This document shows positions 4,035 to 55,326 of a DNA stretch of 64,000 bases, piece after piece. The position numbers and the translations under genes were made by a program. The stretch is taken from IMG/VR virus record IMGVR_UViG_3300042885_001472, one strand, 5' to 3'. This DNA comes from a virus (taxonomy: Duplodnaviria; Caudoviricetes). The notes beneath the pieces are model-generated. The model was given only the letters and a program-made list of their open reading frames with translations, was not told the origin of the DNA and did not search any database. Positions within the stretch are counted from its first letter, which is position 1, and every line of letters begins with the position of its first letter.

Positions 4035-4035
4035 T

Positions 4036-4494
4036 ATGAAAAAAGAAATCGAAAAACTACCTTACGAATTTATTCTGTACATTAACAATAATATTGTATG
4101 TCAAAGATACTTCAATGTTAAAGGATTTAACCATAAATCAATAAATTCATATGAAATTAGAGAAGTCATTGAAGACTCTTGTGATATCATCAAAAGAGAT
4201 TTGAAAAAGAAAACTTTAGAATATCTTTGGAAGTTTTTCAACTCTTATGTTGAACAAAAAACTGAAGAAATTGATAGAAGAAATGTCTATGAAAATGAAG
4301 ATTTCTTTGATTTAGAGATAAAATTTGATGATAATGGCGACCGAAAAACAATTGCTATGCAACGATTCACTGGGAATGTTTATCCACCAAAAGTACGTTA
4401 CTCTGTGGATATCAGAGAGTTAATACCAAGTATTATTTCAAATATTCAAGAAGGTTTGAGTAGAAAAAATTACAATGTAATAGAAACCATATAG
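4036..4494 (+). CDS. Hypothetical protein
   Basis: 152-aa ORF tightly packed in the replication operon. Confidence 0.7.
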   Translation: MKKEIEKLPYEFILYINNNIVCQRYFNVKGFNHKSINSYEIREVIEDSCDIIKRDLKKKTLEYLWKFFNSYVEQKTEEIDRRNVYENEDFFDLEIKFDDNGDRKTIAMQRFTGNVYPPKVRYSVDIRELIPSIISNIQEGLSRKNYNVIETI

Positions 4495-4530
4495 TAAAAA
4501 CAAGATATTTATAATAAAATAAGTTTTAAA

Positions 4531-5931: not shown

Positions 5932-5932
5932 T

Positions 5933-6883
5933 ATGGAACCAATACTAGTAACAAATCCTGATAGGTTTGTATTATTCCCAATTGAACATCAAGATTTGTG
6001 GGAATACTACAATATTGAAAAAGCTGCGATGTGGACAGCTGAAGAATTAGATTTATCAAAAGATATTGATCATTGGGAAAACAAATTAACTGATAATGAA
6101 AGATTTTTCATTAAAAATGTATTGGCTTTTTTCGCCGCGTCTGATGGTATTGTAAATGAAAATTTAGCTATCAATTTTTTAAATGAAGTACAATATACTG
6201 AAGCTAAGTTTTTTTATGGGTTTCAAATTATGATGGAGAATATACATAGTCATGTGTATTCTTTATTGATTGACACTTATATAAAGGATATTAAAGAAAG
6301 ACATAAATGTTTTAAGGCTATTGAGTACATGCCACCGGTTAAGAAGAAGGCTGATTGGGCTTTGAAATGGATTGAATCAGAATCATTTGTTGAAAGACTA
6401 TTAGCTTTTGTGGCGGTAGAAGGTATATTTTTTAGTGGTTCTTTTTGTAGTATATTCTATTTAAAGTCTAGAGGATTAATGCCGGGGTTATGTGATAGTA
6501 ACGCTTTCATATCAAGAGATGAAGCCTTACATTGTGATTTCGCGATACATTTATTAAACAATCATATTGTTAATAAACCATCTAAAGAAAAAATAAAGGA
6601 GATATTATTATCTGCGTTAGATATTGAAAAAGAATTTATATTAGAATCATTACCAGTATCACTTATTGGTATGAACGCTGATTTAATGAAACAATATTTG
6701 GAGTTTGTTGTTGATGGTTTACTATCAACACTCAATTGTGAAAAAGTATTTAACACAAAAAATCCATTTGAATTTATGAATCAAATTGCGTTAAAAACAA
6801 AACAAAACTTTTTTGAGGGGAGATCTACAGAATATAAAGCCGCTGATTTATCAGGACCAATATCATTTGACGAAGAAATTTAA
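5933..6883 (+). CDS. nrdB: Class Ia ribonucleotide reductase small subunit
   Basis: [63 protein letters not shown]. Confidence 0.95.
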
Positions 6884-6903
6884 ATTTTAAAAAAAATAAT
6901 TAT

Positions 6904-40396: not shown

Positions 40397-40597
40397 ATGG
40401 AAGTAAAACAAAAAATTGAAAAAATTATTGGCTCTTTTGATAATAGAGCTGAAGTCGTATCCAACCTGGATAAATTATTTAAAAACAATCATCTACAACT
40501 TATAGAAGAGATCGGTGGTTCTTTAGATAAAAGGAGTCCGGATTACAATAGAATTGTTAATAGATTACTATCAATAAAGATGGATATCACTAAATAA
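40397..40597 (+). CDS. Hypothetical protein
   Basis: 66-aa ORF coupled to sbcC. Confidence 0.55.
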   Translation: MEVKQKIEKIIGSFDNRAEVVSNLDKLFKNNHLQLIEEIGGSLDKRSPDYNRIVNRLLSIKMDITK

Positions 40598-40620
40598 AAT
40601 ATTACAAAAAAATAAATAAA

Positions 40621-40848
40621 ATGGGAGAAATTTATACAAACATCGTTTATCAAAAACCAGTTCCAATTAGTGAATTTAAACCAACATCACCAATGATTAA
40701 TCCAATTACTTATGAATTAATAAACCCAGAATCATGGGAAGATGGTTTATATTTATCACCAAATTTAATGGATGAAAATCTAAAGATAAATATGGTATTT
40801 GAAGTAAAGGATAAAAAAGTGGTTAGAGTATATAAATCGAAGGTATGA
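40621..40848 (+). CDS. Hypothetical protein, possibly the relic of a cassette
   Basis: 75-aa ORF; stop is followed at once by the cassette flank GTAGTATTGGTTATAAC. Confidence 0.55.
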   Translation: MGEIYTNIVYQKPVPISEFKPTSPMINPITYELINPESWEDGLYLSPNLMDENLKINMVFEVKDKKVVRVYKSKV

Positions 40849-41065
40849 TGTAGTATTGGTTATAACGGTTGGATATTGGCTTTCTAACCATTTATATAAT
40901 GCCAAAATGAGCTAATATTTTGTTAGTATTTCGTTTACTTTTACTTTTTTAGGGGTCCATTATAAAATTAAACTATCTGATTTATAGCACTTTACAAAAA
41001 TAATGTAAATATATGAGATGTATATAATATATATAATGTATATTTACACTATAAAACTAAACAAT

Positions 41066-41347
41066 ATGAGAAATTTAATATCAGTAAGCAATCAAACAGT
41101 AAGAGTAGGTAACTTTATTATTAGCAATGTTGCAGAATATGTTTTAGATAATGGAAATAACCAAATAGAATTTAAACTTGTTTCTGCTACTGACAATTTA
41201 GATATGGTTGTCTTAAAAAGTTTAGGTATTAAAAAGGTAGAGTTTAATGCAATGAATAATAACCACATTGATAAATTTATTGAAGGGTCAAAACAAGTTT
41301 ATTTCACAAATGATTTTTTTAATTCATTAATAAAATTAACAGTATAG
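41066..41347 (+). CDS. Cassette hypothetical protein
   Basis: Probable ATG 41066 within ORF 41018..41347. Confidence 0.55.
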   Translation: MRNLISVSNQTVRVGNFIISNVAEYVLDNGNNQIEFKLVSATDNLDMVVLKSLGIKKVEFNAMNNNHIDKFIEGSKQVYFTNDFFNSLIKLTV

Positions 41348-41577
41348 TAAAATGAAAAAACTTACTAAAATACTTCAAAGTTTAAATCGCTTTGCAATCG
41401 GTTTGATTTGTAACAATGTCTACCGAAACGCTAATAACAAAGATAACTGCTTAATGGACTTTTGCAAAGAAAAATAATAAATGTCTACCGTTTTTGCAAA
41501 AGCTTATACGTCTGCCAAACTGTTGCCAAAGCGTGTGTTATGTGACGTTTTTTTATTAATAAACTAAAATTAAAATT

Positions 41578-41775
41578 ATGGAAATAGGAAAATTAAAAGT
41601 AGTATTCATTCTGTCTAATGGTCAAACTTTGACAATTAAATGTAAAAAGTTTAGTATGACAAAACTTAGCGGAACAAAAGGTGAAAGGGAAATTTCGGTT
41701 GAAGGAGCTGATAGAATATGGTCTGTTGACTTAGATGAGGTAGTGGGAATAACTGCTAGATGGTGTCTACTTTAA
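41578..41775 (+). CDS. Cassette hypothetical protein
   Basis: 65 aa; unit 41537-41788 flanked by GTTATGTGAC / GACACATAAC. Confidence 0.65.
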   Translation: MEIGKLKVVFILSNGQTLTIKCKKFSMTKLSGTKGEREISVEGADRIWSVDLDEVVGITARWCLL

Positions 41776-41942
41776 AATGACACATAACGGTTGCAAATAT
41801 AAAACGTTTATTAAACTAAACTTAAATTGAAAAACAGAATATAAATATAAACACAACAATAAATTTGGAACACTGGAATAAATGTTTTATATTTGTTGTT
41901 ATAAGTATGTATTATTTTTTAAACACTAAATTAAATAGAATT

Positions 41943-42149
41943 ATGAAAGACATTAAAGAAATGGAAGTAGAAGAACTTCGCAAAGAAATGGACGAACTTT
42001 GGGGATATTTATATATGACAAGAGAAGTCGGTGCTTATGATAAATTTGAGTGGAACGGATTAGATTATTGGGATGCTGATAGAAGACATCACAAAGTATC
42101 ACAAGAAGTTCTTCTACGGAGTATATTAGAACTCACTGATAAAAAATAA
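41943..42149 (+). CDS. Cassette hypothetical protein
   Basis: ATG 41943; unit 41898-42162. Confidence 0.65.
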   Translation: MKDIKEMEVEELRKEMDELWGYLYMTREVGAYDKFEWNGLDYWDADRRHHKVSQEVLLRSILELTDKK

Positions 42150-42223
42150 TATTACCTATAACGATTTGCGTATATACGCAGTGCTAACGAAAATTTAATT
42201 TGAAATACAAAATTTAATAATAT

Positions 42224-42415
42224 ATGAAAACTTTAATTGGAAAAATGAAAGCATTGCGTATATACGCTGTTATAAGCAGTGCTTTTAAACACGATTGTTG
42301 GATGAACAAGAAAATGGTATCAGCTTCTTATTTCAAAGATGGTGATAGCAGTGTAATATTTTCAACTGGTAAAAAATATTGTTGTGAAAAATGTGGGAAT
42401 CAGTGGTCTGAATAG
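42224..42415 (+). CDS. Cassette protein with Cys motifs; start codon lies inside the hairpin loop
   Basis: HDC...CCEKC; reads through the right arm as ALRIYAVISS; unit 42269-42428. Confidence 0.6.
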   Translation: MKTLIGKMKALRIYAVISSAFKHDCWMNKKMVSASYFKDGDSSVIFSTGKKYCCEKCGNQWSE

Positions 42416-42519
42416 CATTGCTTATAACGTTTTGCAGCTAATAAATCGGCTTGCTGTTTATTAGGTGCGGTTATAGGTATGTGTTTTTTGCGTAGGAATT
42501 AACAACTAAAATTATAAAT

Positions 42520-42687
42520 ATGAAAATTAAAATTAAAACCGAAAAAGTAGAATTTGAATTTGATGATGAGAAAATTTTTCAAATGGGAAATTATTTTGAA
42601 AAGGAAAATAAAGCTGTTTTAGAATTTCTAAAGGAGTGTATTCAAAAGGTAAGTGAGGAATCGATTAAAATTAATAAACGTGAGTAG
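42520..42687 (+). CDS. Cassette hypothetical protein (55 aa, below the ORF-track cut-off)
   Basis: MKIKIKTEKVEFEFDDEKIF...KINKRE*; unit 42470-42715. Confidence 0.6.
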   Translation: MKIKIKTEKVEFEFDDEKIFQMGNYFEKENKAVLEFLKECIQKVSEESIKINKRE

Positions 42688-42772
42688 TGCGGTGGGTAAA
42701 AACATTACCTATAACGGTTTGCAGCTTTGAGCCGTTTAAACGAATATTAATTTAAAACAATAATTAACGAAT

Positions 42773-43000
42773 ATGAAAAATGAAACAATAAAAAATGGCT
42801 TAAAGGTGCTGTTAGTAGCTGTTATTTTTTGCGGTTGTGATACTACTGTAAGGAAAAATTTAACAGGTGAAAAATATTTTGGAAGTGATATAGAAGTGCT
42901 TGTAGTCGATAGTTGTGAGTATCTGATTTTTGCTTCTGGTACGAGAAGTGTAACGCATAAGGGGAACTGTAAATATTGTGCAGAACGTAGCAAAAAATAA
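42773..43000 (+). CDS. Cassette-encoded putative small lipoprotein
   Basis: MKNETIKNGLKVLLVAVIFCG-C signal/lipobox; C-terminal THKGNCKYC; paralogue of 52583..52846. Confidence 0.65.
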   Translation: MKNETIKNGLKVLLVAVIFCGCDTTVRKNLTGEKYFGSDIEVLVVDSCEYLIFASGTRSVTHKGNCKYCAERSKK

Positions 43001-43116
43001 TTGCTACTAACGGTTGAGGCTATGAGTAGTTGCCTTGTAAATACTGCTCAATTAACCACAAACGCTGATAGGCAATTGCTTATAGCCTTTGTTATAGGTT
43101 GTAAAATTTATGGATT

Positions 43117-43359
43117 ATGAAAGTAACAGATTTTATTGGAGTGAAAGCTAAATACGATGAAGATGGACAATTTATTTGGGGAATTGAAAAGGATGGTGGA
43201 CATCAAAAACTTGCTGATTTAAGAGGTTGGGGAGCAATTCAAAACTTATTCATCAATAAGGATAAAACTATTGATTTAGATGCAGCAGCAAGTTTTCAAG
43301 ATGAATTTGGCAGATGGATTGTCGAGGCTATAAACGAGAAATTGGAATGGGAACGGTAG
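43117..43359 (+). CDS. Cassette hypothetical protein
   Basis: 80 aa; unit 43091-43379. Confidence 0.7.
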   Translation: MKVTDFIGVKAKYDEDGQFIWGIEKDGGHQKLADLRGWGAIQNLFINKDKTIDLDAAASFQDEFGRWIVEAINEKLEWER

Positions 43360-43500
43360 TAAATTTTATTACCTATAACGGTTGGCGATTGGTGTCTGTT
43401 ATTTTGCCTTGCAGACATTTCAATTTTACGATAAACTTAATAGGCAAAATTATAGCACCAATTGCTTGTTAGCAGTATGTGTTTTTAAACTTTTTTAGCG

Positions 43501-43695
43501 ATGGCAGGATTAAATTATGGAAACTCTTTTACAAAAAAAAGAGGTATGTATAAAAATAAAAAGGTTGGAGTTAGTTACGCTGAGTTGGCGGATAAATGGA
43601 TTGTAAGAATATTAAAAAATGGAACAGTAACAACAATTGCACAATTTAAAACAAAGGAGGAAACGGATGAATATTACGGTGCGTTGGCAGTTTAA
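43501..43695 (+). CDS. Cassette hypothetical protein, possibly AP2-like DNA-binding
   Basis: VGVSYAELADKWIVRI...IAQFKTKEE loosely resembles AP2 domains; unit 43468-43711. Confidence 0.45.
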   Translation: MAGLNYGNSFTKKRGMYKNKKVGVSYAELADKWIVRILKNGTVTTIAQFKTKEETDEYYGALAV

Positions 43696-43762
43696 AAACA
43701 TTACTGCTAACGTTTTGCAGCTAAACTTAGTTTATTAACCGAATTTAAAACACAATGTAATT

Positions 43763-44011
43763 ATGGAATACAAATCAGAAGATTTTATATCATTTATAGA
43801 GAATAACAGACGAGATAAGGTAAGCCCTAACGGACTTGAATTAATTGCTAAACGTTTTAGGGAACTGGAATGCGAGGTTAATAAATTGAGTTTAGCTGCT
43901 GTTAGCGGTTCGTTGAGTAGTAAATGTTTTACGTTAGCGAATGAATTGGCAATAGCTGGTTATGGAAACGAAGCCGTTATGTTACACTCAATTAGTAATT
44001 CAATACAATGA
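43763..44011 (+). CDS. Cassette protein whose N-terminal half is encoded in the loop of a 195-nt hairpin
   Basis: Reads through the right arm as VNKLSLAAVSGS; unit 43901-44019. Confidence 0.6.
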   Translation: MEYKSEDFISFIENNRRDKVSPNGLELIAKRFRELECEVNKLSLAAVSGSLSSKCFTLANELAIAGYGNEAVMLHSISNSIQ

Positions 44012-44108
44012 CCGCTAACGTTATCGAGCCTTGCACAGCTAAGGTGTCGCCCGGGTTGGGTTATAGGTAGGTTGTAACGAATGTTTAATTAATACACAAT
44101 TTAAAAAT

Positions 44109-44369
44109 ATGGAAAATACAGATTTAATAGGAGAAGATTTTTATCAAATAGAAAAACAAAAAGGTAATATTTTAGATGTAAATAGTGCTATGGCTTTTAA
44201 AATAGCTTGGGATTATGCAATTGGTTATCATAAAAATAAGGTTAAAATAATAGAATTAGAGCTATTAAAATACAAAGAATTAGAAAAAAAAGTTCGTGAA
44301 ATTTCTGATAATATTAATACTAAGCAAAGTATATCTTATTGCGTTATGGAACATTTTAAAATTATATAA
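44109..44369 (+). CDS. Cassette hypothetical protein
   Basis: 86 aa; unit 44060-44408. Confidence 0.6.
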   Translation: MENTDLIGEDFYQIEKQKGNILDVNSAMAFKIAWDYAIGYHKNKVKIIELELLKYKELEKKVREISDNINTKQSISYCVMEHFKII

Positions 44370-44520
44370 TCAAAAATGTTTCTAAATGATACACAACTTA
44401 CCTATAACGTTTTCGAGCTAAGCCCTCGTTTTAATGGGGCTTAGGTTGTGTTACCTGCTGGCGGCAGAGAAATGTTGCTATAAGACTTTAATATAAAAAA
44501 TAACTTAAAATAAATATAAA

Positions 44521-44991
44521 ATGGAAAGAAGCGATTTTAGAATCATAGAAAGACTGAACTCATTTGGTAAATCTGAATTTATTATCCAACATAAAAAACA
44601 TAAAATGGTTGGAGGTTTCTTCGGACTATTTGGTGGTACTATGCAAGATGTATGGGAAGACTTCTACCTAGAAGTATATGAATGCTATGTAAACGACCAA
44701 CACAGATTTCATAAATATCTATTTATACAAAATTGGAAAGAAAATACAGAAGAAGAAATTGAGTTCTATATAGAACACTTCAATAGAAAACCAATTGAGT
44801 ATAGAGGATATAAATTAATTCCGATTGTTTCATACTTTGGTCAAAAATGCCTAACCTATTATGACCCTAAATCATTTTGTAGAAGAGGTAATTACAACTA
44901 TGGTTATAGAATATATAGTAGTGAATATGAATCCAAGAAGTATATAGATGATAAATTAGATAAAGGCAGAATATTAAATATTTATGAATAA
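44521..44991 (+). CDS. Cassette hypothetical protein (last cassette of array 1)
   Basis: 156 aa; unit 44450-45084. Confidence 0.7.
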   Translation: MERSDFRIIERLNSFGKSEFIIQHKKHKMVGGFFGLFGGTMQDVWEDFYLEVYECYVNDQHRFHKYLFIQNWKENTEEEIEFYIEHFNRKPIEYRGYKLIPIVSYFGQKCLTYYDPKSFCRRGNYNYGYRIYSSEYESKKYIDDKLDKGRILNIYE

Positions 44992-45081
44992 TATGAAGAT
45001 TCCAATAGGTGAAAATGAAATAGTTTAGATTTTTTTAACGGCACATACAAAACTATTTCAAAGTAGCTACCGCTTGCAGGT

Positions 45082-45170
45082 AACTATTATATATAAACAA
45101 GTATAGTCTAAACCCTTTAATAACAATACTTTGAACCAAAAAATTATAAAGATTTGTAAATAAAAGTTTA
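45082..45170. repeat. attI-like array-terminal site, copy 1
   Basis: AAC-TATTATATATAAACAAGTATAGTCTAAACCCTTTAA...GATTTGT..AAAAGTTTA; 83/89 identical to 54821-54909 by manual alignment; no hairpin. Confidence 0.75.
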
Positions 45171-45251
45171 ATTATCTTTTAAAGATGAAAATCACTAAAT
45201 AAAATTAGGAAAATATAAATTAATATGTTATCTTTGTAAAAAATATATGTT

Positions 45252-45710
45252 ATGGAAAGTTTAGATGTTAAAAATTTTTGTTTAGTTATATTAGGTAAAC
45301 AAAATGACGTTAAAAAAGAGTTAGAATTTATTTCTGAAGGACCAATAAATTATGTTGAGGGAAAATATTTATTCATCGCAACTTTTAAATCAACATTGTT
45401 CGCGAAGGATATTGAAATCTTTTTAAGTAGTTCCAATATAAATTATATCTTATCTGAAATGGTTTCTTCATTATTTTCGGCTGATCTTGGTGAGTTTAAT
45501 TCAGCACTATTTAATTTAAATCAAAATACTAATATTTTTGAGAAAAAAATTGTTGTAGATTATACTGGAACTGAAGAAGCTGTAATTATTGATGAAGAAG
45601 ATGAAAATTTAACTTTAGATGAATTATTGGATTTAGTGTCTGAAATAGGATTGGATAAATTAACAAGTAAACAAAAAGAACTTTTAAATAAATTTTCACT
45701 AAATAAATAA
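45252..45710 (+). CDS. Hypothetical protein
   Basis: 152 aa; TATCTTTG promoter element at 45229-45236. Confidence 0.7.
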   Translation: MESLDVKNFCLVILGKQNDVKKELEFISEGPINYVEGKYLFIATFKSTLFAKDIEIFLSSSNINYILSEMVSSLFSADLGEFNSALFNLNQNTNIFEKKIVVDYTGTEEAVIIDEEDENLTLDELLDLVSEIGLDKLTSKQKELLNKFSLNK

Positions 45711-45711
45711 T

Positions 45712-46521
45712 ATGGTAAATAAAAAATTCATTAATGGTCAAGAAGATTCAATTTCAAATTACCTTAAGGATGTAAAAAAGTGTGGTGTTATTAACACTGA
45801 CACTGAAGTTGAATTAGCTAAAAGAATACAAGAAGGTGATCAAGTTGCCGCTGATGAATTGGCTAAAGCTAATCTTAGATTTGTTATATCAATCGCCAAA
45901 GAATATCAAAATCAGGGATTACCATTAGCGGATTTAATTTCAGAAGGTAATTACGGATTGATTATAGCGGCTCAACGATTTGACTATACAAAAGGGTTTA
46001 AATTTATTTCTTACGCTGTATGGTGGATAAAACAATCTATTATGCAGTCACTAAACGAACATTCCAGAACTGTTCGGTTACCAACTAATGTTATCAATAA
46101 ACTTTCTAAAATTAAGAAAGAGATAGATGCGTTTGAGCAAAAGTTTGAAAGAAAACCAGTATTAGGTGATGAAATTGAAATGGTATTCCACCCAACAGTG
46201 ATATCGTTAAGTACAACAATAAATGATGATGGTGATGAGTTAATTGAAGTTATTGAAGATCCTAACATTAATAGTCCGGACAATGATCCATATAATGAGT
46301 ACGACATTAAAGAACGTATGAATAAAATTCTATCAATTCTTTCTGAAAGGGAGAAAAATGTGATTGAGTTATATTATGGTATAAATGGATCACCTTTAAC
46401 ATTGGAAGAAATTGGTGAGGAATATGATTTAACTAAAGAAAGAATTCGTCAAATTAAAGAAAAATGTATCAGAAAACTTAGAAATAATGCTGATGTCTTA
46501 CAACAACAATTATTTGGATAA
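45712..46521 (+). CDS. rpoD: RNA polymerase sigma70-family factor, Bacteroidota primary-sigma-like
   Basis: ANLRFVISIAKEYQNQG, DLISEGNYGL, GFKFISYAVWWIKQSI, RTVRLP, region 4 LTLEEIGEEYDLTKERIRQIKEK; no region 1.1. Confidence 0.92.
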   Translation: MVNKKFINGQEDSISNYLKDVKKCGVINTDTEVELAKRIQEGDQVAADELAKANLRFVISIAKEYQNQGLPLADLISEGNYGLIIAAQRFDYTKGFKFISYAVWWIKQSIMQSLNEHSRTVRLPTNVINKLSKIKKEIDAFEQKFERKPVLGDEIEMVFHPTVISLSTTINDDGDELIEVIEDPNINSPDNDPYNEYDIKERMNKILSILSEREKNVIELYYGINGSPLTLEEIGEEYDLTKERIRQIKEKCIRKLRNNADVLQQQLFG

Positions 46522-46666
46522 ATATGAATAAATTTAATGAGTGGTGGAACGAAGTTTTATTCGTTATTAATATTAGTATCTTTGAAATATCTGTTGATAA
46601 TGGAATGATTTGTTCATTGATATTGATAATTTTTGGATTAATGAGTTTATAAATAAAACAAATAAT

Positions 46667-46846
46667 ATGAAAAAAGACATTGAAATTAGTGTAACTGAAA
46701 CAAAATCAGTTGAACATGTTAGTTATGAAGAGTTGTATAACTCATTAAGAGATAGAATTAGATTAATTCAACAACTTAATGATAAATACGAAAATGATGA
46801 AGATTTTGGTAGAAATTTAAGAAAATTATTGAATTTAGGTGGGTAA
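46667..46846 (+). CDS. Hypothetical protein
   Basis: Probable ATG 46667; ends GGTGGGTAA just before the first hairpin of array 2. Confidence 0.55.
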   Translation: MKKDIEISVTETKSVEHVSYEELYNSLRDRIRLIQQLNDKYENDEDFGRNLRKLLNLGG

Positions 46847-46933
46847 AAATATTGATACTAACGGTATCGGACTTGGCGATGTTGCCGAAAACAAATGTTA
46901 ATTAGAATTACTAAACTTTAAATTATAGATAAA

Positions 46934-47230
46934 ATGTCAAACGAAGAAATGAACGGCAATATTGTCAAACCCGTGTTACCTGTTGTACTTATTTGCGATT
47001 GCAGTAGCCGTGAACACCAAATTATCATTGAACACAACAATGAAGATAACTTAACCTACTGCCATATTCATTTGGTAAAACACGGCTTTTGGCGAAGATT
47101 GAAAGTTGGTTTAAAATACATATTTGGTTATAAATGTAGATACGGTCAATGGGATGAATTTATATTAAAACCCGAACACGCTAACCAGCTTCGTGAATTG
47201 TCGAATTTTCTTTCACAGCATAGCAGGTAA
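46934..47230 (+). CDS. Cassette hypothetical protein starting in a hairpin loop
   Basis: MSNEEMNGNIVKPVLPVV...CDC...EH; stop TAA is part of the AAC core; unit 46975-47231. Confidence 0.65.
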   Translation: MSNEEMNGNIVKPVLPVVLICDCSSREHQIIIEHNNEDNLTYCHIHLVKHGFWRRLKVGLKYIFGYKCRYGQWDEFILKPEHANQLRELSNFLSQHSR

Positions 47231-47351
47231 CGGTTGAGTAGTAAAAAATTCTAAAACTAAAAATTATGTATACAAAAGATTTATATGGATTTAATCCAGT
47301 TACAATTGGCCAACACAGGTTGGTTATATTTATTTATTTATAACTAATAAC

Positions 47352-47651
47352 ATGAAAACTAAACAAGAAATAGAAAAGTTAGCTGAGCAATATTTACAAA
47401 AAAATAAACATAATTTTGATACTTGGAAAGAGATAGAACATGTTAAAATTAGTTATATAGATGCTTACACTCAATGCCAAGAAGATGTAGATTGGGAATT
47501 ATTAGTGAAGTTGATTAAAAGGTATACAGAAGAAGATTTACTTCACGCTTTTAGAGAAGGAGTTTTATTACCTAACTCACAAATTGGTATAATGGAAGAT
47601 ATATTTAAACAAGTAGTTCAATCACTAAACAAACAAGACAATGAAAACTAA
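47352..47651 (+). CDS. MKTK(E/Q)EIE..LAE family protein, copy 1
   Basis: Shared blocks MKTKxEIExLAE, YTQCQED, YTEED, SLNKxD. Confidence 0.7.
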   Translation: MKTKQEIEKLAEQYLQKNKHNFDTWKEIEHVKISYIDAYTQCQEDVDWELLVKLIKRYTEEDLLHAFREGVLLPNSQIGIMEDIFKQVVQSLNKQDNEN

Positions 47652-47907
47652 AGAAGAAATAGAACAGTTAGCTGAAGAATTTGGGGATAAATATGCTGAT
47701 AACGGAAATCATAAATATGGTTTTATCAAAGGCTACACTCAATGCCAAGAAGATATGGCTGATAAGAAATCCACAGAGGAAGATATTAGAAAGGCTATTG
47801 AAGTTGGTGTAAATGCAGAAGCCGGTGATTATCCAAAAGGTTTTACACACAAACTTGGAATTAGCTTAGAAGATTATTTTATTAACTCACTAAACAAAAA
47901 AGACTAA
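47641..47907 (+). CDS. MKTK(E/Q)EIE..LAE family protein, copy 2
   Basis: Same conserved blocks. Confidence 0.7.
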   Translation: MKTKEEIEQLAEEFGDKYADNGNHKYGFIKGYTQCQEDMADKKSTEEDIRKAIEVGVNAEAGDYPKGFTHKLGISLEDYFINSLNKKD

Positions 47908-47908
47908 T

Positions 47909-48196
47909 ATGAAAAGCAAAGAAGAAATAGAACAGTTAGCTGAAAATCAATATCCAATTGAAGTAGGAGGTTCGATGTGGATGCCTAATACTAATGATAT
48001 TAAAAAGGCTAATGAACAAGAAGGTTACATAAAAGGTTACATTCAATGCCAACAAGATATGGCTGATAAGAAATATACAAAGGCACAAATTATATGGGTA
48101 ATACAAGAAGCATACGGACACGGTAGAGATAGTGAAGACACTATTGAAGAAAGTATTGATTATATTTTTAACTCACTAAACAAACAAGACTTATGA
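47909..48196 (+). CDS. MKTK(E/Q)EIE..LAE family protein, copy 3
   Basis: Same conserved blocks. Confidence 0.7.
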   Translation: MKSKEEIEQLAENQYPIEVGGSMWMPNTNDIKKANEQEGYIKGYIQCQQDMADKKYTKAQIIWVIQEAYGHGRDSEDTIEESIDYIFNSLNKQDL

Positions 48197-48298
48197 TACA
48201 AAAGATTTATCTAAATGTAATTAGTTTTATATTTTTATTAATTGCAAAATTGATTATTAAATGTTTAGATTTTATCAACTCATTAAACAAACAAAACA

Positions 48299-49183
48299 AT
48301 GACCAGTAAAGAAGTAATGGATGCAGCATTTAATTTAGCTAATAATAAACAAAAGACAATGAAAAACATACACATATTGCCAACGGATAAACCAAGTATA
48401 TTACATTTATATACTGATGAAAATGGCACAAGACTTGAAACTTTTGAAGTAGAATATTCACACACAAGAGATACTCAACACATCTACATCACTTCTGATG
48501 AAGAAATTAAAGATGGAGATTGGTATTTAGACACCTTTAATAATCAAAGAATTAAAGCTAATGAATTTTCAGACCATAAACATTACGGAAATGCTTGTAA
48601 AAAAATCATCCTAACAACAGACCAAGACTTAATTACAGATGGTGTTCAAGCTATTGATGATAAGTTTTTAGAATGGTTTGTAAATAACAGTAGTTGTGAA
48701 AGTGTTGAGGTTGTAAAAGACGGTTTAAAAGTTAAAGAGGGAGGTATTCAAGAACTAATGGAAGATGAGTATTATCAAAAATTCCCAGAAGAGCTTCCAA
48801 ACTGCGTTTTTATTGATAAATATGAAATCATCATTCCACAAGAAGAACCTAAACAAGAAACACTTGAAGAAGTTCAATTAGCTATTTTATTTCATAATAC
48901 TTATGAGAATTTAGCACCAAATTTTGGTTATGAAACAAGAGCAGATACAAAATCATTTGAAACTACTACTCCAAATGGAATGTTAATGATTGCTGTTTGT
49001 AAAGAAATAATTAAATGGCAACAAGAAAGAAGTTATAGTGAGGAAGAAGTAAAAGAAATAATTAAACTTTCTTGTGAAAAAGGTATGCTGATTCAAAGAA
49101 CTATAAATGATAAAGTTAAAATTCCATATACAAGAATAAAAGACTTTACGATTAAAATGTTGGAACAATTTAAAAAGAAATAG
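48299..49183 (+). CDS. Hypothetical phage protein
   Basis: 294 aa; KNIHILPTDKPS, HIYITSDEEIKDGDW, CKKIILTTDQDL; C-terminal YSEEEV resembles the YTEED block of its neighbours. Confidence 0.7.
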   Translation: MTSKEVMDAAFNLANNKQKTMKNIHILPTDKPSILHLYTDENGTRLETFEVEYSHTRDTQHIYITSDEEIKDGDWYLDTFNNQRIKANEFSDHKHYGNACKKIILTTDQDLITDGVQAIDDKFLEWFVNNSSCESVEVVKDGLKVKEGGIQELMEDEYYQKFPEELPNCVFIDKYEIIIPQEEPKQETLEEVQLAILFHNTYENLAPNFGYETRADTKSFETTTPNGMLMIAVCKEIIKWQQERSYSEEEVKEIIKLSCEKGMLIQRTINDKVKIPYTRIKDFTIKMLEQFKKK

Positions 49184-49184
49184 T

Positions 49185-49511
49185 ATGAAAACTAAAGAAG
49201 AAATAGAACAGTTAGCTGAAAGCCAATATGGAACTGAAATAGGCAGTATAAGAGGGAGTAATCCTTATGACTTAGAAGGAAATAGAAAAAATGGCTTAAA
49301 GGTGCTGTTAGTGGATGATAAAATTAAGTATGATGATTTAAAAGACGGAGATATTTATGAGCAGGAACAAAGCAAAGGCGAATGGGTAAAAGGAAAAATT
49401 TGCCACCATTGGAGAGGTAGTTTAATGATAGAATTAATTGAAGGAAGATTGAATGGGAAGCAATGGTATTTGTTTCCTGATTTAAAGAGATTAAGGCGTG
49501 TGGCAGCTTAA
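49185..49511 (+). CDS. Chimeric ORF: MKTKEE-family N-terminus fused through an att right arm to a cassette gene
   Basis: First 36 nt identical to 47641; contains AAAAATGGCTTAAAGGTGCTGTTAGT, identical to 42792-42816; unit 49307-49528. Confidence 0.65.
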   Translation: MKTKEEIEQLAESQYGTEIGSIRGSNPYDLEGNRKNGLKVLLVDDKIKYDDLKDGDIYEQEQSKGEWVKGKICHHWRGSLMIELIEGRLNGKQWYLFPDLKRLRRVAA

Positions 49512-49774
49512 TTTTATTTGCCACTAACGGTTGAGTGTATGAGAAGGTTTGCTTTGTTAAACTTTCAAATTACCACCGACCTTTGTAGCTAACTTTCTTA
49601 TACACCTTGTTATAACCAGTACGGATAAATTAGCACTGAACTTGATACGAAGAACGAATAAAAACTTTTTAAAAATGTGCGGTGGAAAACTTGATTAATT
49701 TAAAAATAAGTAGTATATCTGTAATATCATAATAATAATAAACTAATAAACTAATAAACTAAAAAATTAAACAA

Positions 49775-50368
49775 ATGGCAAAATTTATTGAAACAATTTA
49801 TCCAACTATTGAAGATAGAGTAAGTAGATGGGAAACAATGGGAATGTTACATATAGTTAAATCTGATGATTCTAAAAAATTGGTGGCGATGGCACTTGAT
49901 GCAACTGCAATATATCTTACAGAATTTAATTTTAAAAATTTTGATAACGATACAAAAACGGTTTTAATACCAGTAATTGTAAGAATTTTCAACGAAACAA
50001 ACAAAGATTTCACATTAGAAACATTAACTAAATCAGTTAGAAGAATAATTGAAGATTTTGTGGAAAAATATGAAGAAGCAAAACCTAAGTTTAACCCATT
50101 AACTTCCGAAAGAGATGATGATGCTGAATTTATTGCGTTATATTGCGAAAACTATTCTTTTGATGAAAACAAAATTAAAATTAAATTTAAAATTACATTT
50201 TGGAAAGATATTCCAGAAAGAACATTTATAATTGATGATACCAACTTCTTTCCAAAATATTTTATGGGGTTGGATGGTATTTTATATGAAAATTATGGAA
50301 CAGAGGAAAAACCAATGTGGGAAAATGTTTTTGATAGTGACTATGAGATTGAAATTGTTAATCTTTAA
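49775..50368 (+). CDS. Cassette protein resembling the N-terminal region of T4-like major capsid proteins
   Basis: RWETMGMLH...MALDATAIYL...IPVIVRIF parallels gp23-type KW..GLL.GL...A.LLEN.A..L...P.VRR.F (recalled pattern, not searched). Confidence 0.4.
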   Translation: MAKFIETIYPTIEDRVSRWETMGMLHIVKSDDSKKLVAMALDATAIYLTEFNFKNFDNDTKTVLIPVIVRIFNETNKDFTLETLTKSVRRIIEDFVEKYEEAKPKFNPLTSERDDDAEFIALYCENYSFDENKIKIKFKITFWKDIPERTFIIDDTNFFPKYFMGLDGILYENYGTEEKPMWENVFDSDYEIEIVNL

Positions 50369-50570
50369 GGTGGGAAATTTTTAAAAAGTTTTTCTCACAG
50401 AACTTAAATATGGAACACGAATGTAGTATTGGTTATAACGGTTGGGTGTATGAGAAGGTTTGCTTAGATGAACTTTCAAATTATACACAACTGTTATAAC
50501 CAGTACGGTTAATTTAAGATAAAACTTGATTAAATGAATAATAATTAGTATATTTGTAAAAAAATAAATT

Positions 50571-51044
50571 ATGGAAAACATATTAAAAAGGCTTGAATAT
50601 AAAATATTTAAGAAATACGAAAAAAAGATTGAAGATGTAAAAGATTATGTATGGGATTATAAAAAAATCAATAATGACATTACTCAACTTGAACACAATG
50701 AAACATTGAGTCGTTTTGTGTTATATTATATGAAAGAATTTAACTTAGATGTAATAATTACATCTGGAGAAATTTGCACTATATTTCAAAACTTTAGTAA
50801 TTTTTATATTATTGGTGAAAACGATGTATATAATTATAAAAGATATAAATCTGACATTAGTAATGATTTTGAACCATTTTACCTTATCAAAGAAGAAGAT
50901 AATAATATTGGGGTTGTAATTAAAACCAATATTAGAATTGAACCGAATAATATTATACTAACAAACACTGAAGGTTCTAATTATAAAATAATTGATGTTT
51001 GGAATTTACCAAGTGTTAAACTAACTGAATGTTTTAAAAAATAA
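50571..51044 (+). CDS. Cassette hypothetical protein
   Basis: 157 aa; TATATTTG promoter at 50549; two-gene unit 50493-51405. Confidence 0.7.
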   Translation: MENILKRLEYKIFKKYEKKIEDVKDYVWDYKKINNDITQLEHNETLSRFVLYYMKEFNLDVIITSGEICTIFQNFSNFYIIGENDVYNYKRYKSDISNDFEPFYLIKEEDNNIGVVIKTNIRIEPNNIILTNTEGSNYKIIDVWNLPSVKLTECFKK

Positions 51045-51048
51045 AGAT

Positions 51049-51387
51049 ATGGAAAAAGAAAATTTAAAAACTGGGGTGTACCTCATAAAAGCGGATAGTA
51101 AAGATTATTCCTTAACAAAAGAGAAAGAAGAGAAAATAAATTCATTAGAAATTAATGAAGAACATAAAGATTTTTTCAAAAATCTTTTTAGAGAAGAACC
51201 AACACCAAAAGGTTATGATTTATTAGTTGAATTGGTTGGTCAAAATCCTTTTTTAAAAATCAAAAGTGTTAAAAATAATGATACTGGTGAAAATATTACT
51301 GAACAATTTACTGATAAAAATATTGATGATGTTAATTCTTTATGGTTATTTACTAAACATTTAGAATGGGTTCTTCAGAACATATAA
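51049..51387 (+). CDS. Cassette hypothetical protein
   Basis: 112 aa; second gene of unit 50493-51405. Confidence 0.7.
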   Translation: MEKENLKTGVYLIKADSKDYSLTKEKEEKINSLEINEEHKDFFKNLFREEPTPKGYDLLVELVGQNPFLKIKSVKNNDTGENITEQFTDKNIDDVNSLWLFTKHLEWVLQNI

Positions 51388-51532
51388 CGTAGTATTGGTT
51401 ATAACGTTTTGCAGCTTTAAGAAGTGGCTGCCTAACGGAAAGTTCAAAGTTCGCACAATGTTTATGGCAGCTTTTGCCAAACCGCTGTTATGTGCTGGGC
51501 GGATTATCAGTACTAATTTTAATTTAAAAACG

Positions 51533-51745
51533 ATGTACAAAGCATTTCAAAACAAAAAGTATTATTTGGCGTTTAACCGATTTCCTAAAACTGCCAAAAA
51601 AGTAGGGGGTGTGCATAAAGCATATTCAACAGGATTTAGAAAATGGAATTCTGATGATATGATTACCTACGCAATAGTTGTCGGCACATTCAGGATTATG
51701 TTTGGAATTAAAACGCCAAATTATACTTGTGATGAAGGATGTTAG
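51533..51745 (+). CDS. Cassette hypothetical protein
   Basis: ATG 51533 (the longer track ORF runs through the hairpin); unit 51487-51758. Confidence 0.6.
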   Translation: MYKAFQNKKYYLAFNRFPKTAKKVGGVHKAYSTGFRKWNSDDMITYAIVVGTFRIMFGIKTPNYTCDEGC

Positions 51746-51815
51746 CCTTGCACATAACGCTTTGCAGCTTTGAGCCGTTTACCAAATATTAATAACAAAA
51801 AAATAAATAACGAAT

Positions 51816-51995
51816 ATGCCAAAAACAATACATGCAAAAAGAGAAGATTTAATTTGCGGAAAAATAGACTTAGCACAAGATATGGCTATTAAATTAAAAA
51901 GTATCGAATTACTTGAATTATTAGATAGTATCAGATATGATGCTGTAAGAATGGAACAAAAACTTATTAGCAGAAAACAGGAATCAAAAATATAA
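51816..51995 (+). CDS. Cassette hypothetical protein (59 aa) starting at a hairpin-loop ATG
   Basis: MPKTIHAKREDLICGKIDL...QESKI*; same AACGAATATG context as 42773 and 53389. Confidence 0.55.
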   Translation: MPKTIHAKREDLICGKIDLAQDMAIKLKSIELLELLDSIRYDAVRMEQKLISRKQESKI

Positions 51996-52176
51996 ATAAC
52001 AGAACCACCGCTTGCAGGTAACGGTTTGCAGATTGCCGAAGGTGGCGAAATCGAAGCACTAAACTTGATATAAAAACGAATGTTAAACCGAAGCACAACA
52101 GTTGATATTAGCACTAAACCGCCACTTTTGGCAATGTGCTGTTATAAGCCGTTTTTCTTCACAAATCAAAAAATAA

Positions 52177-52516
52177 ATGGATTTACGAATTGAATACATT
52201 TTCAGAGAAGAAATGAAAAGAGATACATCTTTTCAAGAAAAAAAAAACTGGGTTAAGTTTGCTTTTCGGAACAAACAAATACTCTAAACAAGAAATGAGA
52301 GAAACTTGGGATAGAGGTATTAAACTTGGAATAGAAATAGGATTGCGAAAAGCAAGTTTAGAAGGACAAAGGATTGAACTTAATCACAATACACCCGAAG
52401 GAAAGCATAAGGAATTTCTTGAAAAGTTTTATCAATTGGCTGATGAATATAAATGTGCTGTCCAATTTCATCTCGAATTTGGAATGGTAGTAGTTGCTCG
52501 TCAAAATGGCTTATAA
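52177..52516 (+). pseudogene. Cassette gene frameshifted at an A10 tract (or slippage-controlled)
   Basis: ATG 52177 joins ORF 52259..52516 in frame if A10 at 52238-52247 were A9; unit 52141-52517. Confidence 0.55.
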
Positions 52517-52582
52517 CGGTTTGCAGATAAGCGAAGGCAAAGATTTAGAAACGAAAATTTTAACTTAAAAACAAATATAATT

Positions 52583-52846
52583 ATGAAAACGAGAACATCA
52601 TTAAACCACAGAACCTTTGCTTTTGCTTATGTGCTGTTAGTAGCTGTTATTTTTTGCGGCTGTGAGGATATGAATAGAGCCGAAGAACGCTCAAAAGTAT
52701 TTAAAACAGCAGTAGAAGTTAATGGCTACCAAATATCAATAATAGAATTTGATAGTTGTCAATACTTAATATCAGGCGTTGGCTACTCACAAATGATGAC
52801 ACATAAAGGGAACTGTAAATTTTGTACAGAACGTAGCAAAAAATAA
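52583..52846 (+). CDS. Cassette-encoded putative small lipoprotein
   Basis: ...FAYVLLVAVIFCG-C; C-terminal THKGNCKFC; unit 52636-52857. Confidence 0.65.
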   Translation: MKTRTSLNHRTFAFAYVLLVAVIFCGCEDMNRAEERSKVFKTAVEVNGYQISIIEFDSCQYLISGVGYSQMMTHKGNCKFCTERSKK

Positions 52847-52976
52847 TTGCTACTAACGTTTTGCAGCTAATAGACGGGCTGGAAACTTATATAATTCCGC
52901 CTGTTTATTAGGTGCTGTTATAGGTAGTGCCAAATATAAATACTAAAAGAATATTAATAATTAAAAAATAGAAATA

Positions 52977-53318
52977 ATGAACTTAAAAGAATTTGTAAAA
53001 TTTACATTTGAAAAATACGAAAAAAACGGGTATTGTTTTAGACCTAGAATAGTTTGTAATGATGGGTTTTCAATGAGTGTACAAGGTAGTAACGCATTAT
53101 ATTGTAGACCGAGAATTACACAAGATTGGTATGATAAAATGGAAATAGGTTATCCATCAGCAGAAGAAATTGATATAATAGAATTTGCTGAGGATATTAC
53201 AAAACCAACTGATACCGTTTATGGTTATGTGCCATGTGAACTTATTGAAAAAGTTATTTTAAAACACGGTGGTATTAACTCGGTTGAAACATTTAAAGCT
53301 TCTAAGGATATTAAATAG
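52977..53318 (+). CDS. Cassette conserved phage hypothetical protein
   Basis: CNDGFSMSVQGS..YC.PR...EIGYPS...PTDTVYGYVP...KHGG; unit 52917-53332. Confidence 0.7.
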   Translation: MNLKEFVKFTFEKYEKNGYCFRPRIVCNDGFSMSVQGSNALYCRPRITQDWYDKMEIGYPSAEEIDIIEFAEDITKPTDTVYGYVPCELIEKVILKHGGINSVETFKASKDIK

Positions 53319-53388
53319 GCATTACCTATAACGGTTTGCAGCTTTGAGCCGTTTAAACGAATATTAATTTAAAACTAAAACAACGAAT

Positions 53389-53484
53389 ATGAATAACAAT
53401 GAAATAGAAAATGGCGCAAAGGTGATGTTGGTACCAGTAGCCAAATTAAAATTTAAAAACAATAACTTAAAAATACAATTATGA
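53389..53484 (+). CDS. Hairpin-encoded leader peptide (31 aa) whose TGA overlaps the next ATG
   Basis: MNNNEIENGAKVMLVPVAKLKFKNNNLKIQL*; ATGA overlap at 53481-53484. Confidence 0.45.
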   Translation: MNNNEIENGAKVMLVPVAKLKFKNNNLKIQL

Positions 53485-53741
53485 AAAACAACAAAGAAAA
53501 ATCGTACCAATACGCATCGATGATACAAGAGGCAATAGCTGAATTGATTTCAGAACACGAATTATTAGCTGATTTTGATGATGAAAATAACGCAACTGCA
53601 TTTTTACACGCATTAGCTAATGTAGTGCCATGTAATATTTATAAGAAATTAACTAATGATAATACTGATATTTTAGGTTTTAATCATATTGCTAATAGAT
53701 TAGTATATCAATTTACAAAGCAGGACGAAGCCGAAGCGTAA
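53481..53741 (+). CDS. Cassette hypothetical protein
   Basis: 86 aa; unit 53427-53765. Confidence 0.7.
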   Translation: MKNNKEKSYQYASMIQEAIAELISEHELLADFDDENNATAFLHALANVVPCNIYKKLTNDNTDILGFNHIANRLVYQFTKQDEAEA

Positions 53742-53885
53742 ACGCCAAGGGCTATTGGTACTAACGGTCGGCAATATGAAACGGTTGCCCTTGTAAGACG
53801 TTTCAAAATATGATGCAGTTTTCTGGCAACTGTTTTATATTGCTTGTTATAGCCAGTTAATTTTAATCAATAAAAACGAAAAAAG

Positions 53886-54086
53886 ATGGAAGCACCTAAA
53901 TTAAATGAAGTATGGCATGTTCAATATGGAGAAGCCATTGGTAAAGAATACAATATCCTTGTAAGAATAGATGAGGATAAAAAAGAGTTAAATCCACCGA
54001 ATTGGAGAAGAAACAAGTATAAATGTGAGCATAAAAGTAAGGAACTGATGGTAGGTGGAAATATGTTCATTGAACGGTTTTCTTAA
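53886..54086 (+). CDS. Cassette hypothetical protein
   Basis: 66 aa; unit 53846-54097. Confidence 0.65.
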   Translation: MEAPKLNEVWHVQYGEAIGKEYNILVRIDEDKKELNPPNWRRNKYKCEHKSKELMVGGNMFIERFS

Positions 54087-54297
54087 TTGGCTATAACGGT
54101 TGGGTGTATGAGAAGGTTTGCTTAGATGAACTTTCAAATTATGCACAAATGCTGATAGCAAACTTTCTTATACACCTTGTTATGTGTAGGTGTGGTTAAT
54201 TAAGGTAGAATGTTCAATTGGATAACTGAACAAAAATTTTAAAAGAAAAAGAAAGGTGGATTTTTATTATTTTAATATTTATATATAAAAGAAAACA

Positions 54298-54747
54298 ATG
54301 AAAGATTTGAAACAATTTATTAAAACAACCATACGAGAGTTTTTGAATGAGAGTTCAATTGGGAATATTGAATATAAAATAACATATTCACCACCAGAAA
54401 ATATTCATGTTGTAGCAAAGATTGATGGTGTTATAATTGGAACATTATCTATAATAGATGATAGTCATTTCTTATCAACAGAAGATGAACCAACATTTAC
54501 AATTATGTCAGTATTTGTAGATAAAGAATATAGACAAAAAGGTATTTATATAAATTTAATCAAATATTTTTTACTAAATAATAAATATGGTGTCAAATCG
54601 TTATATTCTTCAAAAGAACCAGAATTTGATACAGAAAAAAGAACATCGGTTGCTGATGGTTTTTGGAAAAATGTTTATACAAATCAAAATAAATATGGTG
54701 TAAATGTTGATAAAATAGATAATGATTATGAAATTTCTTTAAAATAA
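54298..54747 (+). CDS. GNAT-family acetyltransferase-like protein (last cassette of array 2)
   Basis: FTIMSVFVDKEYRQKGIYINLI acetyl-CoA-binding motif A; ADGFWK; leader MKDLKQFIKTTIREFLNES. Confidence 0.7.
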   Translation: MKDLKQFIKTTIREFLNESSIGNIEYKITYSPPENIHVVAKIDGVIIGTLSIIDDSHFLSTEDEPTFTIMSVFVDKEYRQKGIYINLIKYFLLNNKYGVKSLYSSKEPEFDTEKRTSVADGFWKNVYTNQNKYGVNVDKIDNDYEISLK

Positions 54748-54820
54748 GTGCGGTGGTATTTTTCTTTTAAAATTTCCAACCGAAATATTGATTAGAAGGA
54801 TGAACGGAACACTTACACAT

Positions 54821-54909
54821 AACTATTATATATAAACAAGTATGGTCTAAACCCTTTAAAATTAATACTTTGAACCAAAAAATTATAAAGATTTGTTAAG
54901 AAAAGTTTA
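54821..54909. repeat. attI-like array-terminal site, copy 2
   Basis: Near-identical to 45082-45170 and begins at the AAC core of the last cassette. Confidence 0.75.
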
Positions 54910-55020
54910 TATATTATAAAATATAACCCAATAACACATAATTAATTCATTAATAACCTCCACTTTAACAATAAATTGATTATTTTTTTATTATAATAAT
55001 ATTTATATTAAAAAAAAGAT

Positions 55021-55326
55021 ATGGTTAAAGTAGTAAATTTTTTAAAAGTATGGGGGATATTAATTATTTCCGTACTATTATTCTTTAAAACTTGTTCAAT
55101 AACAAGTAAAGTGGAGAAGTTATCAAAAGAAACTAAAGAAGAACTTGTTAAGTTAGATAGTACGGTTAAAAGTGAGACTATTTCTGAAGAAGAATTCAAA
55201 AAAATGATCACTATTGAAGGTTTGAAATCAGAAAAAAGAATGATTCAATCAACAGATAGAAAAATTTTAGATGTTAATAGACAATCTGAAATTGATAAAG
55301 AAATTGAAAACTTAGAGAATAAATAA
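55021..55326 (+). CDS. Membrane-anchored coiled-coil hypothetical protein
   Basis: N-terminal WGILIISVLLFF then charged helices. Confidence 0.65.
   Translation: MVKVVNFLKVWGILIISVLLFFKTCSITSKVEKLSKETKEELVKLDSTVKSETISEEEFKKMITIEGLKSEKRMIQSTDRKILDVNRQSEIDKEIENLENK

Follow-up and report, generated by a model that had tools for sequence, protein, structure and literature searches.

The 64,000-nucleotide stretch of virus DNA analysed here (IMG/VR record IMGVR_UViG_3300042885_001472; Caudoviricetes), referred to below as the window, contains two arrays of small genes split by hairpin sites, at about 40.85-54.82 kb. On the + strand each site reads ...nnnnTAAC, then G(G/T)TTT GCAGC...loop...GCTG, then GTTAnnnn..., and a unit is taken from the G of one GTT to the C of the next AAC, which gives 21 units between 41537 and 54823. 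In these units the bases that follow GTTA at the start (the 5' arm) are the reverse complement of the bases that precede TAAC at the end (the 3' arm). This complementarity extends across the gene, is specific to the two arms of one unit (cognate arms) and covaries from unit to unit. The arms are probably the two halves of the R arm, that is the recombinase-binding arm, of an integron-like site formed by a folded single strand.

The specificity of the pairing was measured by comparing each 5' arm with all the 3' arms, reverse-complemented, and scoring the extension anchored at the core. Cognate arms score 13.8 and non-cognate arms 5.9 (standard deviation 2.2), the cognate partner ranks first in 21/21 units, and the observed sum was reached by 0/20000 permutations. 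Shuffled flank pairings thus score well below the true ones, and the claim of an earlier, sequence-only reading that complementarity between the two sides of a gene goes beyond the 7-bp R box is borne out, because it survives the removal of the core: when the first 7 nucleotides (nt) are skipped the cognate and non-cognate scores are 6.95 and 1.89, and when the first 10 nt are skipped they are 4.81 and 0.92 (again 0/20000 permutations). The four pairs quoted in that reading (42811/43011, 43091/43379, 49307/49528 and 53427/53765) were all located at these coordinates. The two arms that stand beside one hairpin in the array, which is the pair that a canonical attC site would use, score 5.8, the non-cognate level.

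Counting outwards from the G of GTT, GTTA is invariant and nt 5-9 are free in sequence yet paired, both in the window units and in a profile of all positions. At nt 10 the 3' arm has T and the 5' arm A or T (often T/T), and at nt 11 a G of the 5' arm faces a T of the 3' arm in a conserved mismatch; nt 12-15 again vary freely in sequence yet pair, and from nt 16 onward the pairing is that of the background. At nt 11 the T of the 3' arm is present in 99-100% of the units and the opposing G of the 5' arm in 74-84%. The position profile picked pairs by score, which overstates the pairing at nt 12-15, and it was repeated with 5' arms defined by hairpin closure. In some units one extra base of the 5' arm at the mismatch produces a 2:1 bulge. 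A recurring mismatch had been noticed before, but it had been placed 8-10 nt from the core; it lies at nt 10-11 from the G of GTT, which is 3-4 nt past the 7-bp box. A reach of about 14-23 bp had been proposed for the arms; the general length is 15 nt, with stems of 14-16 nt in 13 window units (b, d, i, j, k, n, o, p, q, s, t, u and v), of 19-24 nt in seven (c, e, f, g, h, m and r) and core pairs only in unit l. The stem is indeed extended, as had been proposed, but not by a separate second duplex: the R stem simply continues across one conserved G/T mismatch. The units of the window are the following.

Unit b, 41537-41788, + strand: 15-nt stem; mismatches at nt 9 and 11.
Unit c, 41898-42162, + strand: arms of 24/23 nt; mismatch at nt 7; 2:1 bulge at nt 10-11; stop codon 42147-42149 within the 3' arm.
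Unit d, 42269-42428, + strand: 15-nt stem; G/T at nt 11; open reading frame (ORF) start in the upstream hairpin loop (42224).
Unit e, 42470-42715, + strand: arms of 19/18 nt; 2:1 bulge at nt 10-11.
Unit f, 42811-43011, + strand: small lipoprotein; 22-nt arms; mismatches at nt 10 and 11.
Unit g, 43091-43379, + strand: 20-nt arms; mismatches at nt 10 and 11.
Unit h, 43468-43711, + strand: arms of 23/22 nt; 2:1 bulge; stop codon within the 3' arm.
Unit i, 43901-44019, + strand: arms of 15/14 nt; ORF start 138 nt upstream, within a 189-nt hairpin.
Unit j, 44060-44408, + strand: 16-nt stem; G/T at nt 11.
Unit k, 44450-45084, + strand: final unit of array 1; 15-nt stem; mismatches at nt 10 and 11; non-hairpin sequence after TAAC.
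Unit l, 46975-47231, + strand: 8-nt core pairs only, arms weak; the stop is the TAA of the TAAC core.
Unit m, 49307-49528, + strand: 22-nt arms; mismatches at nt 9-11; 5' arm and half of the hairpin fused into ORF 49185-49511.
Unit n, 49609-50439, + strand: 14-nt stem; G/T at nt 11.
Unit o, 50493-51405, + strand: arms as in n, with different genes inside (two ORFs).
Unit p, 51487-51758, + strand: 14-nt stem; mismatches at nt 10 and 11.
Unit q, 52141-52517, + strand: 15-nt stem; G/T at nt 11; stop codon supplied by TAA within the TATAAC core.
Unit r, 52636-52857, + strand: lipoprotein homologous to f, with the same 22-nt arms; other hairpin and N-terminus.
Unit s, 52917-53332, + strand: 15-nt stem; G/T at nt 11.
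Unit t, 53427-53765, + strand: 16-nt stem; mismatches at nt 4 and 11.
Unit u, 53846-54097, + strand: 15-nt stem; G/T at nt 11; stop codon within the 3' arm.
Unit v, 54179-54823, + strand: final unit of array 2; 15-nt stem; G/T at nt 11; TAAC followed by sequence as at 45085.

The arms are also part of the coding sequences. It had been stated that the 3' arm is often the last codons of the gene plus the stop; this applies to 14/21 units, in which the stop codon ends at most 19 nt from AAC, and not to the rest, and in units l and q the TAA of the core itself serves as stop. The stop codon falls inside the arm because the compact phage genes run up to the site, TAAC and the A/T-rich outer stem supplying the stops. 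The 5' arm is coding too in six units (d, f, i, l, p and r), whose ORF begins within the upstream hairpin loop. In unit f, for instance, the 5' arm codes for part of a signal peptide and the 3' arm for the final codons and the stop. ORFs starting in this way, from 42224, 42773, 43763, 46934 and 52583, continue across both L' and the 5' arm. The N-termini of the lipoprotein homologues f and r are encoded by the hairpins and differ, but their arms are identical. Units n and o have about 120 nt at the 5' side and about 30 nt at the 3' side in common, arms included, and the genes between are unrelated. Four paralogous ORFs at 47352-49511 begin with MKTK(E/Q)EIE(Q/K)LAE; in the fourth (49185-49511) an in-frame fusion takes in the 3' half of a hairpin (49290-49306) plus the 5' arm of unit m, and this looks like the result of a deletion that took the left half of a site.

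A 15-mer from the left half of the site was used to scan IMG/VR and Bacteroidota genomes; results with a single match are mostly chance, and only loci with at least three sites were taken. The scan yielded many IMG/VR phage contigs with several sites each, as well as arrays in Bacteroidota genomes. In these loci the arms were defined independently of each other, the 5' arms from the closure of the inner hairpin only and the 3' arms from the next site motif only, and the mean number of matches at nine variable stem positions was taken as the measure. In 68 units from 25 other phage loci this mean is 6.2 for cross-gene pairs, 3.2 for pairs beside the same hairpin and 3.05 for shuffled pairs. The corresponding values are 6.6, 3.4 and 3.9 for 11 units of the window and 7.0, 2.8 and 3.05 for 19 bacterial units, and the observed values were reached by 0/5000 shuffles. 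The same arms surround accessory genes in the cultured Flavobacterium phage vB_FspS_hemulen6-1 (MN812208.1, our locus L255), a siphovirus with at least 8 sites at 2099-7898 around methyltransferase and accessory genes; its complete 39-kb genome codes for no recombinase of its own. The arm rule is therefore a property of the whole class of sites in Bacteroidota and phages, and not a peculiarity of the window phage. Relative to the site, the gene is on the + strand in 71/80 phage units (loci L002-L117) and on the - strand in 18/19 bacterial units (loci L121-L234). The phage cassettes are thus reversed relative to the bacterial ones, with the hairpin upstream of the gene, and the G/T asymmetry tracks the orientation of the site, not that of the gene.

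Some of these arrays adjoin a tyrosine recombinase. In four Bacteroidota genomes a junction made of a 3' arm and TAAC followed by T(A/T)G(T/C)TTAT is found about 90 nt past the stop of a Xer-like tyrosine recombinase. Recombinase, attI-like site and array adjoin one another in the bacterial sequences G002-G005 and in the phage contig G007, and in five phage loci the recombinase is beside the array, at its downstream end and on the same strand as the genes. These enzymes are located at L247:9608-10723 (-) and L254:9177-10073 (+), and also in L248, L249, L250, L096, L087, L090 and L022. The best family of the array-adjoining recombinases is NF040815 (XerA-like), with 206-217 bits for a cut-off of 220. 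Against the integron integrase family TIGR02249 (cut-off 265 bits) they score 155-202 bits, with matches confined to positions 2-179 and 237-314, and the IntI-specific insertion is therefore absent from the recombinase. The bacterial recombinase and a phage protein 36% identical to it are both Xer-like. The two arrays of the window both terminate in TAAC and then continue into a common sequence without hairpin (45085 and 54824), and the array edges and orphan arms are as follows.

45085-45175, + strand: sequence past the final TAAC of array 1 (TATTATATATAAAC...), with about 89% identity to 54824-54914; attI-like junction.
54824-54914, + strand: sequence past the final TAAC of array 2; attI-like junction.
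40850-40866, + strand: lone 3' arm at the left edge of array 1, with the sequence found in units n and o; no matching 5' arm upstream.
52005-52022, + strand: orphan 3' arm with GCAGGTAAC at its end; the stretch from 51758 to 52022 contains no 5' arm that matches it.

Unit g is about 98% identical to a unit of phage locus L014 from the GTTA of the 5' arm to the TAAC of the 3' arm only; both sides differ, the homology stops exactly at TAAC, and in L014 the unit sits behind an unrelated upstream hairpin. Unit r is common to locus L006 together with its upstream hairpin, and many other matches consist of the hairpin alone. The presumed marks of crossover (array ends, bacterial attI-like junctions and the homology breakpoint) all fall directly after TAAC, at a resolution coarser than one base. 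Regarding the metagenomes of lakes in which the window phage is present (2016 to 2024), joints within 48.4-49.2 kb derive from abundant relatives of one gene. Besides, a contig at depth 66-72 in runs X17 and X23 (more than 10x the phage depth there) joins 41923 to 42141, so that the two arms of unit c, 5' and then 3', follow each other directly and the gene is absent. The same contig passes from 42163 through 22 other letters to 41881; this second joint is also present in X13 at depth 5.65. Both joints have short sides (24 nt). In some abundant relative, this contig (41881-41923, 42141-42163) could represent a unit of two arms without a gene, a tandem repeat or a small circle.

The structures that such arms might form were explored by computed folding. 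A simulated circle junction, composed of the own 3' arm, the upstream hairpin and the own 5' arm, folds with a mean of -24.1 kcal/mol and 16.6 arm pairs, against -15.8 kcal/mol and 7.7 arm pairs in the arrangement of the array and -15.6 kcal/mol and 6.7 pairs with wrong arms. Circle-type sites are thus predicted to fold 8 kcal/mol better than array-type or wrong-arm sites, and into one continuous hairpin, whereas array-type sites have an R stem of 4-6 bp only. From the outside inwards, the predicted circle fold has the outer stem, then the G/T position and the R stem; a one-sided bulge of 3-5 nt follows TAAC, and the inner stem is fully paired or carries a single 1x1 mismatch (GCAGC-type L stems), with the two bulged bases absent. 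The + strand is more stable than the - strand at 17/17 sites folded. When whole array segments were folded as single strands, cross-gene arms were paired in 11/14 units and adjacent arms never. The sequence-only reading had offered two interpretations, an extended hairpin stem in an excised circle and a unit that folds back as a large stem-loop. Both agree with the computation, since simulated circles are predicted to form one hairpin whose stem the arms lengthen and cross-gene arms are predicted to pair in the folded segments; the computation does not choose between them.

According to the explanation that we consider the likely one, the complete site on the + strand would have an outer stem of at least 4 bp, the T (3' arm) facing the G (5' arm) at nt 11, a 9-10-bp stem down to TAAC/GTTA, the one-sided bulge of 3-5 nt and then the inner hairpin. 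The crossover would probably take place directly after TAAC on the + strand of the window, as the breakpoints suggest, and thus within the long stem; with the crossover there, an inserted cassette would hold the 5' arm at one end and the 3' arm at the other. Each cassette would keep its own matched arm pair, and the arm across the hairpin would be that of the neighbouring cassette, with no match. The full duplex arm of 15 bp, which is the size of the binding arm of a tyrosine recombinase, would arise in the cassette circle or when the unit folds back on itself. The variable covarying positions, the invariant T/G and the length of 11+4 nt fit an arm that such an enzyme would read by its structure. 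By analogy, the integron principle applied to a longer stem would be the simplest account, and it would give exactly the observed pattern. We infer that the strand folds in vivo, that the recombinase binds the arm and that the pairing is under selection.

The sites show the imperfect inverted repeats of an attC hairpin (R''-L''...L'-R'), in the form TAAC-G(G/T)TTT-GCAGC...GCTG-GTTA. Like integron cassettes, the units contain single genes split by imperfect palindromes with conserved AAC/GTT, the crossover would fall in the R stem, and the distal R box is that of the neighbouring cassette and matches its own far end (PMC7439510, PMC4792948); bacterial arrays also carry an attI-like junction and a tyrosine recombinase at one end. 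In canonical sites the crossover separates the A from the C of RYYYAAC in the folded bottom strand (PMC7439510), and for that reason the + strand of the window would be the equivalent of the recombined strand. On the other hand, the stem is of 15 nt (up to 24) here and of 7 in attC sites, and at nt 11 an invariant T faces G. GTTAnnn, with positions 5-7 free, takes the place of the canonical GTTRRRY box, a scan of the window for GTTRRRY does not pick up the sites, and adjacent arms pair only at GTTA/TAAC. Where attC sites have two extrahelical bases and a two-sided spacer, near-perfect hairpins with a one-sided bulge of 3-5 nt are predicted here. The recombinase lacks the IntI-specific insertion, unlike the integron integrase, and the strand that bears the phage genes corresponds to the recombined (bottom) one, whereas in the bacterial arrays it is the other way round.

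The attP(+) site of CTXphi is similar in its Xer-type recombinase without the integron-specific helix and in a hairpin stem that mimics double-stranded DNA, with no extrahelical bases on display (PMC4792948). However, the whole CTXphi genome integrates at dif through the host XerCD, whereas here dozens of small cassettes with individually covarying arms stand in arrays, and some phages carry their own recombinase. Xer/dif sites have arms of about 11 bp around a centre of 6-8 bp; the R arm described here has 11 nt as far as the conserved T and 4 bp more, the one-sided central bulge has 3-5 nt, and the L arm is unrelated to the R arm. In virulent phages, clusters of attC sites lacking integron-integrases (CALINs) have been reported by Qi et al. 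2023, with attC-like sites without integrase and methyltransferase genes among the cassettes (PMC9892861). These clusters have a minimum of two sites of the canonical model (three in the example shown), and neither extended stems nor a conserved mismatch nor large arrays are described for them (PMC9892861). For Bacteroidetes, IntegronFinder reported a single complete integron, that of Salinibacter ruber, and otherwise only integrases that lack cassettes (PMC9024848). A search of the literature, with most subscription journals outside its scope, found no account of extended cross-cassette arms or of this class of sites. The PeSL (promoter early stem-loop) cassettes of T4-type phages, reportedly described by Arbiol et al. 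in 2010, are said to be small accessory genes in a hyperplastic region with repeated stem-loops between them, and reportedly shuffle by homologous recombination between conserved motifs. PeSLs are not known to have gene-specific covarying arms, an AAC/GTT core or a recombinase.

Three other explanations of the arms have to be weighed. The cross-gene fold could itself be the working substrate in the single-stranded array, the gene being looped out and excision resolving the branched structure, with each TAAC in a perfect R duplex beside a perfect inner hairpin. The minimum-energy folds described above, which pair cross-gene arms in 11/14 units and adjacent R stems never, speak for it, and so do the chance-level complementarity of adjacent arms and the R stem of about 4-6 bp in the local canonical attC fold. 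All of this is equilibrium thermodynamics, however, and pairing over 200-4000 nt would have to prevail over local structure, single-strand binding proteins and the short life of single-stranded DNA. In the bacterial array L247 a cognate pair spans 4.35 kb, so that folding in cis is unlikely there. We regard this substrate as rather improbable, although it is compatible with the split R arm, in which case the circle would not be the sole selected state.

An effect at the level of mRNA is hardly credible. The flanks would pair in the transcript, with G-U at nt 11, and form stems for RNase III-type processing or stabilisation as in other phages; it is true that the phage + strand is the sense strand, that the mismatch at nt 11 would be a legitimate G-U pair, and that at each of the 17 sites folded the + strand gives a more stable structure than the - strand. 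But the bacterial arrays keep the G/T asymmetry with 18/19 genes on the opposite strand, where a transcript would hold a C/A mismatch, and because of this gene orientation the arms belong to the DNA site and not to the mRNA. The arms, moreover, travel with attI-like junctions and a recombinase, and an Rfam scan of the window gave zero family matches. Very unlikely too, if slightly less so, is a non-autonomous transposon whose terminal inverted repeats are read as double-stranded DNA, the hairpins being spacers or preferred targets. The near-identity of unit g between unlike flanks and the high-depth metagenome contig that seems to join a 5' arm to its 3' arm without the gene would suit such an element. 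One transposase nevertheless implies a common repeat sequence, and here only GTTA and nt 10-11 are conserved while the rest of the arm differs between units and covaries within each. Unlike terminal-inverted-repeat transposons and miniature inverted-repeat transposable elements (MITEs), the units show no target-site duplications; they always abut hairpins with conserved flanks, and the associated enzyme is a tyrosine recombinase.

Several observations weigh against the split R arm as the full explanation. The window has the arrays and the attI-like end and no recombinase: tblastn with the phage and bacterial recombinases against the 64-kb window found none. Given an R stem of 4-6 bp, excision from the array is hard to explain by this model alone. 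Homology blocks also break at the boundary between L' and GTTA (unit g and its L014 counterpart; the hairpins of f and r), and a single crossover point does not explain these breaks. They could come from a further exchange, at the opposite edge of the central bulge, or from homologous recombination through the conserved flanks of the hairpins. Six homologous unit pairs were found, mostly with identical arms, which are too few for a count of compensatory changes. Contigs of four lake metagenomes over 40500-55200 contained no bridging excision or empty site, in pieces of 200-800 nt that are broken at repeats and too short.

The window as a whole looks like part of a large T4-like phage, judging by its ORF content. 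All its long ORFs are on the + strand and its G+C content is 27-32%. The ORFs match a UvsX-like recombinase, a DnaB-like helicase, ribonucleotide reductase, a sigma factor, a GIY-YIG endonuclease, and baseplate wedge and Hoc-like proteins, and megablast of 24 kb of the window against cultured phages gave no match, nor did an exact 34-mer of the window have one in IMG/VR. Upstream of the arrays, the N-terminus of an SMC/SbcC-like ORF (38152-40389) weakly matches an intein splicing domain.

In integrons, the match between the first bases of a cassette and its own far end, seven bases long, was an early clue to circular movement. The signature of cassette ends described here is two to three times longer, gene-specific, marked by one invariant mismatch and absent between neighbouring arms, and it defines the true extent of the recombination site for a large and apparently undescribed class present in Bacteroidota and in freshwater and marine phages. 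A site model with the split arm of 15 nt would permit the annotation of such arrays, and the cultured pair of Flavobacterium sp. LMO6 and hemulen6-1 makes the system experimentally tractable. The finding also bears on the evolution of integron-type recombination from Xer recombination. It is possible, though we hold this only tentatively, that a Xer-like recombinase without the integron-specific helix runs the cassettes, and that the long stem with its fixed T/G mismatch replaces the extrahelical bases in recognition and strand choice. On this view, since neighbouring arms do not match, the binding arm would be assembled solely from the two ends of one cassette, either in the circle or in the array with the gene looped out. 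If this is true, a second strand exchange between L' and GTTA might swap inner hairpins between cassettes, and the system would be a living intermediate between the single-strand recombination of the Xer/CTXphi type and integrons, common to Bacteroidota chromosomes and virulent phages.

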